Of a stretch of 59,824 nt of DNA, positions 580 through 20,291 are shown one piece after another (position 1 is the stretch's first letter; every line of letters starts with the position of its first letter). The translations under genes and the position numbers were made by a program. Below the pieces are notes generated by a model. The model saw only the letters and a list, made by a program, of their open reading frames with translations. It did no database searches and was not told the DNA's origin. The stretch lies in assembly GCF_003334255.1 (NCBI RefSeq), contig NZ_QOWU01000028.1, one strand, 5' to 3'. Source of the DNA: Escherichia coli (GTDB lineage: Bacteria; Pseudomonadota; Gammaproteobacteria; Enterobacterales; Enterobacteriaceae).

Positions 580-1338
580 TTAATGGATTACCTGCGATAA
601 AAATGCCCTCGTACGCTCTGATTTAGGATGCGCAAAAAATTCATCAGGTGCAGCTTGCTCCACTATTTCCCCACGATCCATAAAAATTACCCGGTCAGCG
701 ACGGTTCGTGCAAACCCCATCTCATGTGTTACACACAACATTGTCATACCCGACTGCGCCAGCCCAATCATCGTATCCAGCACCTCTTTCACCATCTCAG
801 GATCGAGCGCCGACGTTGGCTCATCAAACAACATAATTTTCGGCTTCATACACAGCGAACGCGCAATGGCAACGCGTTGCTGCTGACCACCTGAAATCTG
901 TCCGGGAAACTTATGCGCATGTTCGGCAATTCTCACCCGCTCTAGGTAATGCACCGCCAGATCTTCAGCCTCTTTCTTAGGCATCTTGCGTACCCAAATC
1001 GGTGCCAGGGTACAGTTCTGTAAAACGGTCAGATGAGGGAAGAGATTGAAATGCTGAAAGACCATTCCCACTTCCTGCCTGACGCGCTCAATATTGCGGA
1101 TATCTTCATTAAGTTCGATGCCATCTACCACGATCCGTCCCTGTTGATGTTCTTCCAGATGATTAATACAACGAATGGTTGTCGATTTACCGGAACCTGA
1201 AGGGCCACACAGAACGATCCGTTCTCCCGGTTGCACGGTTAAATTTATATTTTTCAAAACATGGAATTGTCCATACCATTTATTGACGTTTTCCAGCGTA
1301 ATCATCGTGTTAGCAGGTTGCAGTAAAATTTGGCTCAT
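580..1338 (-). CDS. yhdZ: Amino-acid ABC transporter ATP-binding protein
   Basis: 252-aa ORF with Walker [10 protein letters not shown] and ABC signature [13 protein letters not shown]. Confidence 0.9.
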
Positions 1339-1345
1339 AGTGTCC

Positions 1346-2449
1346 TCAATGCGGTGTACGCCCGGTGTTAAAACGTTTTTCCAGATACTGGCTATAGCGC
1401 GACATGCTGAAACAGAAGATCCAGTAGATCAGCGCGGCGAAAACATACCCTTCCGTCGACATACCCAACCAGGCGGGATCAACGGTTGCCTGCTGAACGC
1501 TACTGAAAAGATCGAACAACCCGATAATGATCACCAGGCTGGTATCTTTGAAGAGTGCGATGATGGTATTTACCAGCCCAGGAATTACCAGCTTCAACGC
1601 CTGTGGCAGAATAACCAGCCCCTGAGTTTTCCAGTAACCCAACGCCAGCGACTCTGCCGCTTCATATTGCCCTTTAGGCAGCGCCTGTAATCCACCTCGC
1701 ACGACTTCCGCAACATATGCTGACTGAAACAGGATCACGCCAACCAGCGCGCGGATCAATTTGTCGATACTGGTGCCTTCTGCCATAAACAACGGCAGCA
1801 TGACCGAAGACATAAACAGAACGGTAATCAGCGGCACGCCGCGCCAGAATTCGATAAAAATGACCGATAAGATACGCACAATCGGCATATGGGAGCGGCG
1901 ACCTAACGCCAGTAAGATCCCCCACGGTAGCGCCCCCGCAATCCCAACTGATGCAATAATTAAAGTTAGCGTCAGCCCGCCCCATTGCCGGGTTTCAACC
2001 CGCTCAAGAGCAAAAAAACCGCCATACATCAGCCACCAGACAATCAGTGGGTAAATCACCGCCCAGGCCGCAATATAGCGACCGCGATGCGGGAGTATTT
2101 TCCAGAACATTGGTGCGATCGACACAAGCCCAATCAGTAATGCGAGGTTAATTCGCCAGCGTTGGTCGTGTGGGTAAAGCCCATACATAAACTGACCAAA
2201 TCGTTCGTGGATGAAGACCCAACAGGCACCGGCTTTTGTGCAGTCGGCACGCGTTGAGCCAACCCAGTTAGCCTGCAAAAATGCCCAGTTCAGCAACGGT
2301 GGGATCAGTTCCCACATCAACCATATGCAGCCAATAGTCAGCAGGCTATTGCTCCAGCTGGAGAACAGATTTTTTCGCACCCACACCATCGCGCGGCTTG
2401 AGTTATGGCTCGCCGGGCGCGGGGGATGAGACAGCAATACTTTTGTCAT
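1346..2449 (-). CDS. yhdY: Amino-acid ABC transporter permease
   Basis: Hydrophobic multi-TM ORF in operon with yhdZ; start taken at the second Met of the 368-aa ORF. Confidence 0.85.
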
Positions 2450-5637: not shown

Positions 5638-8600
5638 TTATCCTTTAAAGCAACGGCGGATCACCACAAAGAACACCGGTACGAAGAAGATTGCCAGCAA
5701 CGTTGCAGAGACCATTCCTCCCATTACCCCGATACCCACAGCGTTCTGCGCGCCACTGCCGGCACCGTTACTGATAGCTAGCGGTAATACGCCGAGAATA
5801 AAGGCGAGAGAGGTCATCAGGATAGGACGCAGACGCATACGTACTGCCATCAGTGTCGCTTCAACAACACCTTTACCCTCTTTCTCCATGAGATCTTTAG
5901 CGAACTCAACGATCAAAATAGCGTTTTTGGCCGACAAGCCAATTGTCGTTAGCAAGCCCACCATAAAGTAGACGTCATTTTTTTGATTAAAGAGTGTCGC
6001 CGCCAGCAGCACGCCGACAATCCCTAACGGCACTACCAACATAACCGAGACAGGAATTGACCAGCTTTCATAGAGTGCAGCAAGGCACAGGAAAACAACC
6101 ACAAAGGAAATTGCTACCAGAGCGGGAGCCTGGTTTCCCGATAAGCGTTCCTGATACGACATACCCGTCCAGTCATAACCAATGCCCGCAGGTAATTTTG
6201 ACGCAAGGTTTTCCATCAACGCCATGGCATCGCCGGAACTGGTTCCTGGCGCGGCTTCCCCCTGAATCTCCATTGACGGCAGACCGTTGTAGCGTTCCAG
6301 TCGCGGAGAGCCATACACCCAATGTGAAGTGGTAAAGGCCGAGAATGGCACCATTTCGCCGTTGGCGCTGCGGACATAAAGTTTATCGACATCTTCTGGC
6401 AGCATACGGAATTTGGCATCCGCCTGAACATACAACTTTTTCACGCGACCACGGTCGATGAAGTCGTTAACGTAAGTCCCACCCAGCGCCGTTGAAATGG
6501 TCTGATTGATGTCAGAAAGTGAAACACCTAATGCCTGCGCCTTTTCCTGGTCAACTTCCAGTTTAAACTGCGCGGTGTCTTCCAGGCCATTAGGGCGCAC
6601 GCTGACTAAGCTGGCAGGATGTTGCGCCGCCATACCAAGCAACTGGTTACGGGCCTGGGTTAGGGCATCGTGACCCAGCCCAGCCTGATCAATTAACTCA
6701 AAGTCGAAACCCGTTGCCGTGCCCAGTTCAACAATGGCTGGCATATTGAATGGAATGACAAAACCGTCGCGGATCTTGCCCAATTCCATTTTGGCACGAT
6801 GGATTACCGCTTCCGCACTGTTTTCGTCACCATTACGCTCTTCCCACGGTTTCAGACTGACGAAGGCCATACCGGCGTTTTGTGCCTGGCCGCTGAAGCT
6901 AAAGCCGTTAACCGTAAAGACACTTTCAACGTTCGCTTTCTCGTTCTTCAGATAGTAATCCGTAACTTGATCCAACACTTTTTGCGTCCGCTCTTGCGTC
7001 GCGCCAGCGGGTAACTGAATCATGGTCAGAAAGACACCCTGATCCTCTTCAGGTAAGAAGGAAGACGGAAGACGTAAAAACAACACCACCATTCCTGCAA
7101 CAATCAGCGCATAGATCAGTAAATATCGTCCTGTGGATCCGAGGATTTTGCCGACGCTGTTGGTGTAGTGGTTAACGCTATGATCGAAGGTGGTATTAAA
7201 CCAACCGAAGAAACCGCCCTTATTTTCGTGATGCTCAGCAGAGACGGGTTTAAGCAGCGTTGCACATAACGCAGGGGTAAGAATCAATGCCACCAGAACA
7301 GAAAGCGCCATTGCCGAAACGATGGTGATAGAGAACTGGCGATAAATTGCCCCAGTAGAACCGCCGAAGAATGCCATCGGAATAAATACCGCTGACAGCA
7401 CCATCGCGATACCCACCAGTGCGCCCTGAATTTGCGACATCGATTTTTCCGTCGCTTCTTTTGGCGGGAGCTTATCCTCCATCATCACGCGCTCGACGTT
7501 CTCCACCACCACTATCGCATCATCGACAAGCAGCCCGATGGCAAGCACCATCCCGAACATCGTTAGTGTGTTGATGGAGTAACCAAAAGCGGCGAGGATG
7601 GCAAACGTCCCTAACAACACCACGGGTACCGCAATGGTGGGGATCAGCGTTGCTCGCATATTCTGCAAGAACAGATACATCACCAGGAACACCAGCATAA
7701 TGGCTTCGAACAGCGTTTTTACCACTTCGTGAATAGAAAGCTGGACGAATGGCGTGGTGTCATAAGGGTAGAGAACCTTCATTCCCTGCGGGAAGAATGG
7801 CTGTAATTCCGCCAGTTTTGCCTTAATGGCTTTCGCGGTATCGAGAGCATTCGCGCCGGTTGCCAGCTTAATCCCCAGGCCCGCCGCCGGTTTTCCGTTG
7901 ATACGAGCGATAACGTTATAGTTTTCACCGCCAAGTTCAACCCGTGCGACATCTTTCAGGCGTACCACCGAGCCGTCACTGTTTACGCGCAGGGTCACTT
8001 TGCCGAATTCTTCCGGATTTTTAAACCGCGTCTGAGCAATAATCGAGGCGTTCAATTGTTGCCCTGGTAACGCTGGCGTTCCGCCCAACTGTCCGGCAGC
8101 GATCTGATCGTTCTGTACCTTCAACTGGTTAATCACATCAACCGGTGTCAGTTTATATTTGTTTAGCAGATCGGCATCCAGCCAGATACGCATCGCATAC
8201 TGTGCGCCGAAAAGCTGTACGTCACCGACGCCATTCAGACGGCTAAGCGTATCTTTAACGTTAGAGGCCACATAGTCCGAGATATCGTCCTGTGTGGTGC
8301 CTGGGTTATCAGAGACAAAGCCCGCCACCATCAAATAGCTGCTACTGGACTTTTCAACACTGATCCCCTGCTGCTGAACCTCCTGCGGCAGCAACGGCGT
8401 GGCGAGCTGGAGTTTGTTCTGCACCTGCACTTGCGCGATATCAGGATCGGTCCCGGACTGGAAGGTAAGGGTAATTGTCACGCTACCGGCGGAATCGCTG
8501 GTGGAGGACATATACATCAGGTTATCGATACCGTTCATATTCTGTTCGATAACCTGCGTCACCGTATCCTGCACGGTCTGCGCATCAGCGCCCGGATAGT

Positions 8601-16508: not shown

Positions 16509-17858
16509 TTATTTTTCCTGAAGACCGAGTTTTTTCTCCAGATAGTGGATGTTAGTGCCACCATGCTGGAAGTTCTCGTCATTCATGATGCGGATCTGCA
16601 GATCAACGTTGGTTTTGATACCGTCGATGATCAGCTCCTGCAGCGCATTCTTCATGCGGGCAATCGCCACGTCACGGTTTTCACCGTAGCAAATCAGCTT
16701 ACCGATCATTGAGTCATAGTACGGCGGTACGGTGTAGCCCGCGTAGATATGAGACTCCCAACGTACGCCAAAACCGCCAGGTGCGTGGAAACGGGTGATT
16801 TTGCCCGGACTTGGCAGGAAGGTGTTCGGATCTTCGGCGTTGATACGACATTCCACCGCATGGCCGCGAACGTGAACTTCTTCTTGCTTGATCGACAGCG
16901 GTTGACCGGCAGCGATACGCAGCTGTTCTTTGATCAGGTCAACGCCGGTGATCATTTCTGTAACCGGGTGTTCTACCTGAATACGGGTGTTCATTTCGAT
17001 GAAATAGAACTCGCCGTTTTCGAACAGGAACTCGAAAGTACCTGCACCGCGATAGCCGATATCAACACACGCTTTAGCGCAACGTTCGCCGATGTAGCGA
17101 CGCAGTTCCGGGGTAATGCCCGGTGCTGGCGCTTCTTCGACCACTTTCTGGTGGCGGCGTTGCATGGAGCAGTCACGTTCCGCCAGATAGATAGCGTTGC
17201 CCTGACCGTCAGCCAGTACCTGAATCTCGACGTGGCGAGGATTTTCCAGGTATTTCTCCATGTAAACCATATCGTTGCTGAAAGCAGCTTTCGCTTCCGC
17301 ACGGGTCATGGAGATGGATTGTGCCAGTTCAGCGTCGCCGCGCACTACGCGCATACCGCGACCGCCGCCGCCGCCGGAGGCTTTGATAATCACCGGATAA
17401 CCAATGCGTTTAGCAATGGCACGGTTTTTATCCATATCGTCGCCCAGCGGGCCGTCAGAACCCGGTACGCAAGGGACGCCCGCTTTTTTCATCGCCGCGA
17501 TTGCGGATACTTTGTCGCCCATCAGGCGAATGGTTTCTGCTTTCGGGCCAATGAAGATAAAGCCGGAGCGTTCAACCTGCTCGGCAAAGTTGGCGTTCTC
17601 GGAGAGGAAGCCGTAACCCGGATGGATTGCTACTGCGCCGGTGATTTCAGCGGCGCTGATGATTGCCGGGATGTTCAGATAACTTTTTACTGACGGAGCA
17701 GGGCCAATACAGACCGTTTCATCTGCCAGTAATACGTGTTTTAGATCGCGATCCGCGCTGGAGTGCACAGCGACAGTCTTGATGCCCAGTTCTTTACAGG
17801 CACGAAGAATACGCAATGCAATCTCGCCGCGGTTGGCAATAACAATTTTATCCAGCAT
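16509..17858 (-). CDS. accC: Biotin carboxylase subunit of acetyl-CoA carboxylase
   Basis: ORF with ATP-grasp motifs; start at [16 protein letters not shown] (449 aa). Confidence 0.98.
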
Positions 17859-17868
17859 GTTCGCCTCG

Positions 17869-18339
17869 TTACTCGATGACGACCAGCGGCTCGTCAAATT
17901 CTACCGGTTGTCCACTTTCGACCAGAATTGCTTTCACGGTACCGGATTTGTCCGCTTCGATCTGGTTCATCATTTTCATGGCTTCAACGATGCACAGGGT
18001 ATCGCCCACGTTGACTTTCTGACCCACTTCGATGAACGCTTTTGCGTCCGGGCTTGGGGTGCGGTAGAAAGTACCAACCATCGGGGAACGTACGATGTGA
18101 CCACTGATTTCCGCTGCTGCTGGCGCTTCCATGGAAGGAACGGTCGCCGGAGCGGCTGCGTTAGATTGAGCTGGCTGCTGCATCATTGGTGCAGCGTAAG
18201 CTTGTTGCATCACAGGGAAACTTGCGGCAGGAGCTGCACGGCTAATGCGTACTGACTCTTCGCCTTCAGAAATTTCCAGTTCGGAGATGCCTGATTCTTC
18301 AACCAGCTCGATCAGTTTTTTAATCTTACGAATATCCAT
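17869..18339 (-). CDS. accB: Biotin carboxyl carrier protein
   Basis: 156-aa ORF with Ala/Pro-rich linker and biotinylation motif [10 protein letters not shown]. Confidence 0.98.
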
Positions 18340-19316
18340 GAGTGGGTTCCGTACTCTTTGTTTAGTGTGATTGTGACAGGCGTTTCACCGCCGTCTGTAA
18401 AGCGTATGCCCCGACAGCTGTATGCATAGCGATAAATTCCAGCAGGCCGGGACGCCGGTCTATTTTGCCCCAGAGTGTCAATGTTAGACTTGACGGACAT
18501 TGTGCAGCGATCTGCTGCTATCCTCCGGCAAAAAACAAAATATACCTTCGTTGCGCCAATGTCACCTTTTCCGCAGCGCAAAAACTGCGTCAGGGAGGAC
18601 GAGGTCGCACATTATAACGATTTCGTAGCAATTGGCAGCTAAATACTGGTCTTATCAGGGAAGATAATCAACAGCTAACATGTAAATAACCTTCAACACC
18701 GTGTAATTTGCAACAAGCCGCACAATTCACGAAATTAGCGCCATCATCGACGGAACTTCTTATAACGTAAGGTGAAAAGCTGAAAAGCCAGCCCTGCGAA
18801 GATGAGGGGCTGCAATGAGATAATCTTCACAGACCACAAATAATGTAGGGATGCCAGGATCGCGACAAGATAGACGACATTACGCAGCGGTTGCTGGGGA
18901 TTACCCAATTTTCACTGCATCGTCTGGATAGATGTGAATGCTAAAGCACGCAAAATTAACCGATTGACAATGCTCAGCATTAAATAGGTTCGAGTGATTA
19001 ATTTGTAGTCAAACAAAATCAGATTATTCACCCCATGGTACCAGAAATAAGTAAGGGGCTAAGCGTAGCGTCGCCCAGGCAAAGCACCATAAACCTAACA
19101 GGCGACGGAGGCGTATCAATAATAGCTGTTTAGTGGAGTATCAATGCGCATCAATTTGTGGTCAGTCGAAATCATGACTTTCCAGTTTGGATGATGTTGT
19201 ATAACTTCCTGACCAAGGTGTTCGACGAAAGCTGTCCGGCTAACCGCTTTTCCCGTTAACCGATTGAATAATGATTTCAAAATGAGTTCCCTCTCTTATT
19301 ATTCCCTGCTAAATGG

Positions 19317-20291
19317 TTAGTTAACCTTCACCAGCGTGCGACCCTGGATCTGGTTATTAATGATGGCCTCGGCAAAGTTCGGTGCCTCTGACAGAGATAT
19401 CTCTTTTGCCGCCTGGGTATAGAATGATTCCGGTAAATCGGCGACCAGTCGCTGCCAGGCTTGTGCGCGGCGTTCTGGTGGCGTCATTACTGAATCCACC
19501 CCTTGCAAACGGACATTACGCAGAATAAATGGCATGACCGTGGTTGGCAGAGTAAAACCACCCGCCAGACCACAGGCCGCCACGCAGCCGCCGTAATTCA
19601 TTTGCGCCAGCACTTTTGCCAGCACTTTGTCGCCAACGGTGTCAATTGCCCCAGCCCAGACTTGTTTTTCCAGAGGACGGGATTCGGCAAACTCATCACG
19701 AGGGAGAACACGGCTAGCACCTAAACTTTTCAGATATTCATGGGTACTTTCGCGACCGGAAACGGCAACGACCTGATAACCCAACTTATGCAGCAGCGCC
19801 ACGGCGGTACTGCCGACGCCACCACTGGCACCCGTCACGACAATCTCCCCGTCCTGCGGGCGAACACCGGCATCTTCCAGCGCCATCACACACAGCATGG
19901 CGGTAAAACCGGCAGTACCGATAATCATTGCTTTACGCGCGTCCAGCCCTTGCGGCATGGCAACCAGCCAGTCACCTTTCACTCGCGCCTGCTCCGCCAG
20001 CCCACCCCAGTGGTTTTCACCAACGCCCCAGCCAGTGAGTAACACCTCCTGACCGGCATGAAAACGCGGATCTTCGCTGGTGCGTACAGTTCCGGCAAAA
20101 TCGATCCCAGGAATCATCGGAAAATTACGGATGATTTTTCCCTTACCGGTAATCGCCAGCGCATCTTTATAGTTCAGGCTCGACCAGTGAACATCGACCG
20201 TGACATCGCCCTCCGGCAGGCGACTTTCGTCCAGAGTCTGTACTGATGCGAGAGTTTTGCCGTCCTGCTGTTCTAAAAGTAACGCCTGCAT
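19317..20291 (-). CDS. acuI: NADPH-dependent acrylyl-CoA reductase / quinone oxidoreductase family
   Basis: 324-aa ORF with zinc-free MDR-family sequence (MQALLLEQQDGKTLASVQTL...). Confidence 0.9.
   Translation of the reverse strand: MQALLLEQQDGKTLASVQTLDESRLPEGDVTVDVHWSSLNYKDALAITGKGKIIRNFPMIPGIDFAGTVRTSEDPRFHAGQEVLLTGWGVGENHWGGLAEQARVKGDWLVAMPQGLDARKAMIIGTAGFTAMLCVMALEDAGVRPQDGEIVVTGASGGVGSTAVALLHKLGYQVVAVSGRESTHEYLKSLGASRVLPRDEFAESRPLEKQVWAGAIDTVGDKVLAKVLAQMNYGGCVAACGLAGGFTLPTTVMPFILRNVRLQGVDSVMTPPERRAQAWQRLVADLPESFYTQAAKEISLSEAPNFAEAIINNQIQGRTLVKVN

Follow-up and report, generated by a model that had tools for sequence, protein, structure and literature searches.

The acuI-accB spacer of Escherichia coli holds the decayed remains of three genes around a conserved accBC promoter

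The 977 bp that separate acuI from accB in Escherichia coli consist of what is left of three decayed genes, with one live and highly conserved promoter among them. We analysed this spacer in a stretch of E. coli DNA of 59,824 nucleotides (the window), which is reversed relative to K-12. Reading from acuI towards accB, the spacer contains the start of a DUF1444-like gene (yrdF'), a large internal part and end of an msrQ gene (yrdE'), and what appear to be the two ends of an aroQ gene, which now lie in the accB leader. We consider it very probable that the spacer as a whole is such a stack of dead genes, all on the minus strand, around a single live control region, and, as part of the same explanation, that the yrdF' and yrdE' relics are non-functional. 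The spacer is real as a description, ordinary as biology and largely known already. The K-12 genes yrdF and yrdE are the same sequence, their annotated coordinates mapping without any difference to 19280..19138 and 19137..18744, and both appear as pseudogenes in two papers (PMC7648144; 10.1101/359208). What the present analysis adds is their origin, in the start of a DUF1444-like gene and in an ancestral, accB-linked copy of msrQ. The region illustrates neatly how a large "intergenic" gap can come about in a well-studied genome, with three dead genes stacked around a live promoter while a pair of alternative deletion alleles continue to segregate in E. coli.

The spacer is found in all 5426 complete E. 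coli genomes, and it matches K-12 MG1655 3404459..3405435 collinearly at 976 of 977 positions. A first-pass annotation of the window had described an ORF-free spacer of about 1 kb, with no ORF of 60 aa or more across roughly 735 bp of it, and this description holds: the gene ends at 18339 and 19317 leave 977 bp between them, and the ORF listing has no such ORF lying wholly inside 18582..19316 on either strand. Its further statement that only ORFs of 12-32 aa occur was wrong, as ORFs in the spacer reach 55, 54, 54, 50, 42 and 39 aa, and two 54-aa ORFs on the minus strand (19116..19280 and 18744..18908) are the very remnants that identify the region. A repeat search returned short chance repeats only, with no REP element and no IS remnant, and in a promoter and terminator scan the promoter-like matches on the plus strand were at chance level. 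The features discussed below are collected in Table 1.

Table 1. Features of the acuI-accB spacer and its surroundings, in window coordinates.
Feature	Position	Strand	Remarks
accC	16509..17858	minus	
accB	17869..18339	minus	start at 18339
acuI/yhdH	19317..20291	minus	stop at 19317
csrD		plus	
acuI-accB spacer	18340..19316		977 bp
yrdF' (K-12 b4697)	19138..19280	minus	TTG start and first ~47-48 codons of a DUF1444-like gene; K-12 annotation
yrdE' (K-12 b4646)	18744..19137	minus	msrQ (yedZ) relic, codons ~69-195; K-12 annotation, homology
Hairpin CAGCCC-N12-GGGCTG	stem-loop 18812..18789, T-rich tail to 18772	minus	inside yrdE' codons for QPLIFAGL
Invariant box CTGATAAGACCAG	18646..18658	minus	just upstream of -35; invariant in 12 genera
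accBC promoter (originally aroQ-accBC)	18611..18638	minus	-35 CTGCCA, 16-nt spacer, -10 TATAAT
aroQ 5' UTR, now first third of accB leader	18501..18604	minus	conserved in 12-genus and 47-sequence alignments
aroQ start codon and first ~7 codons (relic)	18480..18500	minus	ATG aligned with the aroQ ATG of 6 genera
aroQ last 15 codons and stop (relic)	18362..18408	minus	tblastn 14/15 identical, E 3.5e-7
Ancestral 22-nt aroQ-accB spacer	18340..18361	minus	accB ribosome-binding region (GAGTACGGAAC...)
62-codon relic ORF	18312..18500	minus	old aroQ ATG to 25 nt inside accB, in another frame
Rho termination region	19257 (K-12 3404518 +)	minus	PMC7815308 supplementary file 2, score 2.54, significance 4.2e-7
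Weak orphan Term-seq 3' end	18948 (K-12 3404827)	minus	inside yrdE'; 789 reads, PMC7815308
Weak orphan Term-seq 3' end	18402 (K-12 3405373 +)	minus	63 nt before accB; 1014 reads, PMC7815308 supplementary files 1, 3

The proximal part of the spacer had been expected to hold the accBC promoter and a long leader, and this expectation is borne out by a -35/-10 match that sits in a block invariant across 12 genera. The match agrees with the sigma-70 consensus at 10 of 12 positions, with a spacing inside the usual 16-18 nt, and in the 12-genus alignment there is hardly any variation in the surrounding block (about 18670 to 18500). Transcription of accBC is predicted to start near 18604, giving a leader of ~265 nt. 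This is the locus at which Li and Cronan, in 1993, reportedly found an accBC promoter with an unusually long leader of ~300 nt; the promoter is likewise far upstream here, but the predicted leader is the shorter of the two. James and Cronan are said to have described the autoregulation of AccB in 2004. The core of the invariant box upstream of the promoter, AGACCAGTA, recurs at the same place in the loci of Vibrio, Aeromonas and Proteus. The box resembles the FadR operator, and we regard it as a putative one. FadR has been suggested to regulate acc operons directly (PMC11602165), and the autoregulation of AccB and growth-rate control have been summarised elsewhere (PMC3896788; PMC11602165).

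What the earlier reading overlooked is that the leader itself appears to be the relic of a gene. We compared the region with 80 accB loci from other species and found aroQ directly before accB in 69 of them; in Enterobacter cloacae, for instance, the ORF in this place (locus L081, 5527..5979) encodes a type II 3-dehydroquinate dehydratase (TIGR01088, E 1.7e-62). Across Enterobacterales, the invariant box and the promoter hexamers recur, and the distance to the next ATG, which in most genera is that of aroQ, is fixed at ~110 nt. When the E. coli leader is set against the gammaproteobacterial aroQ-accB-accC cluster, the promoter block, the 5' UTR, the ATG, the last 15 codons and the 22-nt spacer before accB are all in register, but about 314 nt of aroQ are missing. 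At the start of the relic, 10-15 of the first 13-21 nt are identical to those of aroQ-bearing genera. At its end, the 69 nt from 18408 to 18340 agree at 67-68 positions with the loci of Kluyvera, Pluralibacter and Pseudocitrobacter, which retain aroQ. The 22-nt spacer, whose GAGTACGGAA motif is present throughout Enterobacterales, is identical to that of aroQ-bearing genera at 19 of 19 positions or better. Between the two ends, ~70 nt (18479..18409) cannot be aligned to aroQ, and the loss may have involved more than one internal deletion. The remnant lies where aroQ lies elsewhere, directly upstream of accB and behind the shared promoter, with both its start and its end in register. Against the AroQ profile (TIGR01088, ~140 residues), the translation of 18358..18500, which includes the surviving C-terminal frame of AroQ, gave no NCBIfam match; the match to AroQ is confined to the last 15 residues, in tblastn. 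The gene is absent from the accB loci of Citrobacter, Superficieibacter and Phytobacter too. In place of AroQ, E. coli relies on AroD, which is a type I enzyme.

Taken together, these alignments give good support to the view that the long accB leader is the hollowed-out aroQ of an ancestral aroQ-accBC operon. On this history, the 404 bp next to accB would be the ancestral control region of aroQ-accBC with aroQ emptied out of it, in which the promoter, the invariant box, the aroQ 5' UTR and ATG, the last 47 nt of aroQ and the 22-nt spacer would have survived almost unchanged. The hollowed-out gene would also explain why the promoter stands about 265-300 nt away from accB, and so offers an origin for this odd distance. 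The conserved pieces presumably survive because the expression of accB depends on them. We put forward tentatively, as a possibility that we would not call probable, the full reading in which the leader is a hollowed-out aroQ whose pieces were kept because accB expression still runs on the signals of the dead gene. One candidate mechanism would be translation of the 62-codon relic ORF, ending inside accB; in another, the pieces would serve as the target on which AccB autoregulation acts. The short, almost invariant segments 18646..18658, 18501..18604 and 18340..18408 are the places in which to seek the basis of AccB autoregulation and the control by FadR. The aroQ origin of the leader is not marked in the K-12 annotation, and we found no mention of it, and nothing relevant linking aroQ or msrPQ to accB, in a literature search of incomplete coverage; we make no claim of priority.

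Only E. coli and E. albertii have an open ORF running from the old aroQ ATG into accB; in Citrobacter and other genera it is closed, and this lack of conservation outside Escherichia rules it out as a conserved upstream ORF. It might nevertheless still be translated in E. coli, with ribosomes that end 25 nt inside accB tuning accB translation and the leader serving as a working upstream ORF. The ribosome-binding site and ATG of aroQ are conserved, the 69 nt preceding accB are almost invariant, and the length of the ORF, 62 codons, is the same in the two species despite two mutually offsetting indels, which keep the frame. This arrangement is, however, interrupted in Citrobacter and kept in no other genus that lacks aroQ, the 62-aa peptide (18315..18500) matches no NCBIfam family, and a small-ORF ribosome-profiling supplement has no entry at its coordinates (10.1101/2021.07.02.450978). 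We regard a working upstream ORF as unlikely.

The only Rfam model to touch the leader is Ysr190 (RF02764), the Yersinia "sRNA 190", which has a weak match at 18537..18636 (25.3 bits, E 0.41) that is well below its gathering threshold of 66. At the orthologous place in Yersinia and Serratia the same model scores 77-131 bits, where it covers the promoter -10 element and the first ~70 nt of the leader. That the model maps to the promoter and 5' UTR in these genera explains the weak match in E. coli, and because it begins upstream of the -10 box, Ysr190 probably describes part of a 5' UTR and not an sRNA that stands by itself. RNAalifold found no consensus structure in 47 aroQ/accB 5' UTRs. When the first ~40 nt of the leader were folded sequence by sequence, the median z was -0.67, and 30% of the sequences fell below -1.5. 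A hairpin before GGUGACA is present in many Enterobacteriaceae leaders, but it is not general.

The distal half of the spacer is dominated by yrdE', for which descent from msrQ is clear. Positions 19131..18750 align with nt 205-585 of K-12 msrQ at 77% nucleotide identity (E 3e-82), and the frame-corrected peptide is 68% identical to residues 69-195 of K-12 MsrQ and matches the NCBIfam MsrQ model NF003831 (E 9e-26) at profile positions 70-193 of 212. It falls short of a full-length MsrQ, with 90.7 bits against a cut-off of 130 and the N-terminal ~68 codons gone. The reading frame carries a +1 frameshift near 19040, an in-frame TGA at 18914..18912 that derives from CGA, and a premature TGA at 18746..18744 ahead of the ancestral TAA at 18737..18735; in CFT073 and other strains, PGAP annotates the relic as a YedZ pseudogene that is partial. 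MsrQ (YedZ) is the heme-binding membrane subunit of the MsrPQ methionine sulfoxide reductase. While yrdE' is homologous to it and still has the ancestral RYKKFR motif at its C-terminus, the first ~68 codons, the start and the msrP partner are gone, the frame contains the frameshift and two stops, and there is no constraint at the protein level. It is a relic and not a working MsrQ. No MsrP match was found in the spacer of the window or in E. albertii, and msrP has left only faint 5' remnants, in the long allele described below.

Among the 80 accB loci, msrP-msrQ stand directly upstream of accB in 45, of which 34 also have acuI, and the genera with accB-linked msrPQ include Citrobacter, Enterobacter, Kluyvera, Erwinia, Pantoea, Serratia, Yersinia, Hafnia, Edwardsiella and Budvicia. 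The spacer is therefore the ancestral msrPQ site. The ancestral order, which holds across Enterobacterales, is csrD, acuI-msrP-msrQ-aroQ-accB-accC. The working msrPQ genes of K-12, by comparison, adjoin hiuH/hprRS. In a neighbour-joining tree of msrQ (382 columns, with a long branch for the pseudogene), yrdE' is a long-branched sister of K-12 msrQ and the pair is sister to Citrobacter, a placement that fits a duplication of msrQ within the Escherichia lineage. All 47 accB-linked MsrQ proteins end in RYKKFRQWWR* or a close variant of it. The relic ends in KKFRR*WR* in E. coli and in KKFRQWWR* in E. albertii, whereas the working K-12 MsrQ instead ends in KKLRSLFNRLRKQVHNKLSV*. By this contrast, the relocated msrQ seems to have lost its last few codons and the accB-linked copy to be the original. 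The tree, together with the contrast between a relic with the ancestral C-terminus and a working copy with a new tail, suggests that msrPQ would have been copied to the hiuH/hprRS locus in the Escherichia lineage. The comparison thus indicates that msrPQ first sat beside accB and was relocated in Escherichia.

The other member of the pair, yrdF', is the beginning of a gene that is still intact elsewhere. A 271-aa gene in E. albertii (locus L006, 4308..5123) opens with the same 48 residues, as does a 276-aa version in another E. coli (locus L086), which is annotated as a DUF1444 domain protein. The intact gene matches DUF1444 weakly (Pfam E 0.009; NCBIfam E 7.5e-5, well short of the cut-off), and the family of such intact genes is tiny. 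Its relatives, at 62-63% identity, lie on contigs that also carry KfrA and Aca2-type genes, for which reason the gene looks like the cargo of a mobile element, and the parent of yrdF' looks, by this genomic company, to have been acquired horizontally.

In E. coli, the locus occurs as two alleles, which have spacer positions 1-179 and 281-977 in common. The K-12-type allele, to which the window belongs, has 101 private bases (19137..19037), corresponding to msrQ nt ~197-300. The long allele has 856 private bp and was found in 670 of the 5426 genomes (about 12%). The first shared segment ends at spacer position 179, which is window position 19138, and it is at about this point that yrdF' is broken off. 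Downstream of the DUF1444 stop codon, the long allele contains remnants of the acuI-msrP spacer and of the 5' part of msrP (E 2e-8 against E. cloacae and 2e-7 against Citrobacter). Because these remnants follow the gene directly, the DUF1444-like gene would have been inserted between acuI and msrP in the Escherichia lineage. The private sequence in each allele, 101 bp against 856 bp, rules out the long allele as the parent of the K-12-type allele. In the simplest history, an ancestor with the order acuI-DUF1444-msrP-msrQ-accB would have lost msrPQ twice, through independent, overlapping deletions with different end points. The first would have given the long allele, in which DUF1444 is intact and is followed by stubs of msrP and msrQ; the second would have given the K-12-type allele, in which yrdF' is fused to yrdE'. 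The order of duplication, DUF1444 insertion and two deletions is a parsimony reading of a few genomes, in which E. coli and E. albertii represent Escherichia. Several finer comparisons at the junctions were set aside. The ATTGATAC repeat at the yrdF'/yrdE' junction did not serve as the recombination site, since both copies are still there, 25 nt apart. Where the long-allele insert ends on the right, what looked like an msrQ match is not significant, and this edge resembles msrP nt ~205-232 more, though these matches too are weak. Nor is the tail of K-12 msrQ significantly similar in DNA sequence to the start of the DUF1444 gene, the two sharing only a weak match at the peptide level.

The first-pass annotation had called the distal half unexplained and suggested that it might hold a long acuI 3' UTR, a small RNA or a small protein. 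This half is the annotated pseudogene pair yrdF'/yrdE', and as a hidden RNA or small-protein candidate the spacer is of no importance. Decay of the sequence, an IS1 insertion, a cassette without phenotype and Term-seq all leave these suggestions unsupported. Sequence comparison identified the distal half as the fastest-diverging segment of the locus, with changes that are mostly non-synonymous. Compared with CFT073, yrdE' is 92-95% identical, as against 98.4-99.6% for acuI, accB and accC and 99.6-100% for the 404 bp before accB; compared with E. albertii, yrdE' is 84% identical, with gaps. The ratio of non-synonymous to synonymous codon changes is 16:2 in yrdE', 5:11 in acuI and 0:17 in accC, while yrdF' has few substitutions, too few for a test of selection. 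One natural clinical isolate carries an IS1 within yrdE'. A kanamycin cassette at about 18703, just downstream of the distal half, left growth and cell shape unchanged (10.1101/359208).

These data bear on the idea that one of the leftover ORFs, the 54-aa YrdF' or a 54-aa fragment of MsrQ membrane helices, is a working small protein, or that the region encodes a small RNA. Both 54-aa ORFs are indeed open, yrdF' retains the native start and the upstream spacer of the intact gene with few substitutions, and there is the weak orphan 3' end at 18948. However, the signature of a conserved, selected ORF is missing: the divergence of yrdE' is mostly non-synonymous, and the homologous ORF of E. albertii differs in length and sequence. 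The other allele, in about 12% of E. coli, and the IS1 insertion in one isolate speak against it as well, as does Rho termination inside yrdF', which implies poor translation. No match to a protein family was obtained, and the small-ORF ribosome-profiling supplement (10.1101/2021.07.02.450978) has no entry at 3404400-3405499, provided that the table uses the same K-12 genome version. For an RNA, an Rfam search at E up to 1 returned no family above threshold and only the sub-threshold Ysr190 match, which argues that no known RNA family lies in the distal half. We therefore judge a working small protein or small RNA to be very unlikely, and decayed gene remnants remain our explanation of this half.

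The hairpin that drew attention to the distal half does exist: the inverted repeat CAGCCC-N12-GGGCTG, followed by GCTTTTCAGCTTTTCAC, lies on the minus strand, and the distance from acuI that had been given as about 500 nt comes to about 505 nt from the acuI stop. Like an intrinsic terminator, it has a G+C-rich 6-bp stem followed by T-rich sequence, but it differs in its 12-nt loop, its interrupted T-run (GCTTTTCAGCTTTTC), a stability at chance level and the lack of a mapped 3' end. Folded as RNA, it reaches a minimum free energy of -11.6 kcal/mol (z = -1.05), a value equalled or bettered by 31 of 200 dinucleotide shuffles. A scan of 18200..19450 for short G+C-rich stems with a loop of 3-8 nt and at least 5 T right after the stem returned no site, the hairpin failing because of its loop and its interrupted T-run. 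In the two E. coli lineages that were compared, all 6 of the 6 stem pairs can form; the homologous codons of the working K-12 msrQ (CAGCCG...GGGCTG) form 5 of the 6 pairs, and those of other genera 0-4 of 6. By these comparisons the hairpin is best taken as an incidental leftover of msrQ codons. The complete Term-seq tables published by Adams et al. in 2021 (PMC7815308) list no 3' end at the hairpin, in K-12 ~3404963-3405003 (34049xx/34050xx). The reading of the distal half as a long acuI 3' UTR with this hairpin as its intrinsic terminator, which would draw on a stem-loop and T-rich tail on the acuI strand about 505 nt past the stop and on a fully paired stem in both lineages, is already close to refuted and very improbable, given folding no better than that of shuffles, the failed scan, a repeat inherited from msrQ codons, the missing 3' end and a recorded Rho region (3404518) far upstream of the hairpin (PMC7815308).

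That Rho region, at 19257, falls within yrdF', 60 nt beyond the acuI stop. According to these published data, transcripts of acuI that enter the relics are stopped by Rho, as expected for untranslated RNA. The positions of the 3' ends were transferred from K-12 to the window through the collinear match of 976 of 977 positions. Of the two weak orphan ends, only the one at K-12 3405373 is scored, in supplementary file 3, with a Rho score of 0.93 and an intrinsic score of 2.1, below the study's cut-off of 3 (PMC7815308). The weak 3' ends at 18948 and 18402 indicate that some RNA from the region does accumulate.

The 69 nt preceding the accB start are nearly invariant among genera between which synonymous sites are otherwise saturated, and this near-invariance persists even where the C-terminus of AroQ is encoded there. 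This segment contains a possible hairpin, GACGGCG-GTnAAA-CGCCTGTC. The candidate hairpin varies in sequence in Serratia, Yersinia and Photorhabdus, with pairing still feasible. A weak published 3' end lies just ahead of it.

In Yersinia and Serratia, the interval between msrQ and aroQ matches Ysr190, an Rfam "sRNA" family, on the accB strand (see table). Because the first ~30 positions of Ysr190 cover the invariant promoter, including its -10 box, Ysr190 appears to correspond to the 5' end of the aroQ-accBC mRNA and not to a separate sRNA gene. We found that aroQ is also absent from Citrobacter (three species), Superficieibacter and Phytobacter. In all of these, msrPQ, the promoter and the 5' UTR are retained, as is the final stretch of ~50 nt ahead of accB.

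Relatives of the DUF1444-like protein, 62-63% identical, are carried by metagenomic contigs, where they adjoin KfrA_N, Aca2_YdiL and ResIII-type genes. These neighbors suggest that the gene that left yrdF', the broken DUF1444-like gene start, was of plasmid or phage-borne origin. The DUF1444-like protein begins with (M)KSLFNRLTGKAV..., a sequence native to its family, and this N-terminus is similar to the Escherichia-specific tail, LRSLFNRLRKQV..., of the working MsrQ. At the peptide level the match has an E value no better than 0.007, from a search of tiny size; the corresponding DNA segments, the 3' end of K-12 msrQ and the DUF1444 gene start, do not match significantly. The likeness of the two peptides hints that the copied msrPQ segment was joined to the start of the DUF1444 gene, for example via a tandem or circular intermediate. 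Separately, a called protein of 205 aa from a Logan contig (P0011) consists of full-length AccB joined directly to the yrdF' peptide; this fusion is probably an artefact of assembly or rearrangement.

The msrQ relic, yrdE', is interrupted by an IS1A element in E. coli strain 14EC017, and acuI (yhdH) is itself annotated as frameshifted in E. coli strain 16843. In the symbiont Candidatus Pantoea persica, csrD, msrP and msrQ each gave split tblastn matches, a pattern that would be consistent with pseudogenisation still in progress in this neighborhood.

Coordinates of the features discussed; L-numbers denote comparison loci or contigs, each with its own coordinates
Feature	Position	Remark
69 nt before accB	window 18340..18408	same place in L015, L022, L024, L038, L044
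Weak published 3' end	window 18402
Ysr190 matches	L062 5380..5481; L042 5238..5339; L040 5380..5481; L027 5379..5480	accB strand; Rfam
aroQ-less loci	L007, L008, L056, L014, L025, about 5730..6000 in each
DUF1444-like relatives	L087 3898..4731; L088 698..1531	metagenomic contigs
Compared segments	L005 5060..5119; window 19280..19240	K-12 msrQ 3' end vs DUF1444 gene start
IS1A in yrdE'	L089 about 940..1720	window about 18980..19030
acuI/yhdH annotated as frameshifted	L002 2478..3451	strain 16843
Split tblastn matches to csrD, msrP, msrQ	L053 1546..5303	Candidatus Pantoea persica
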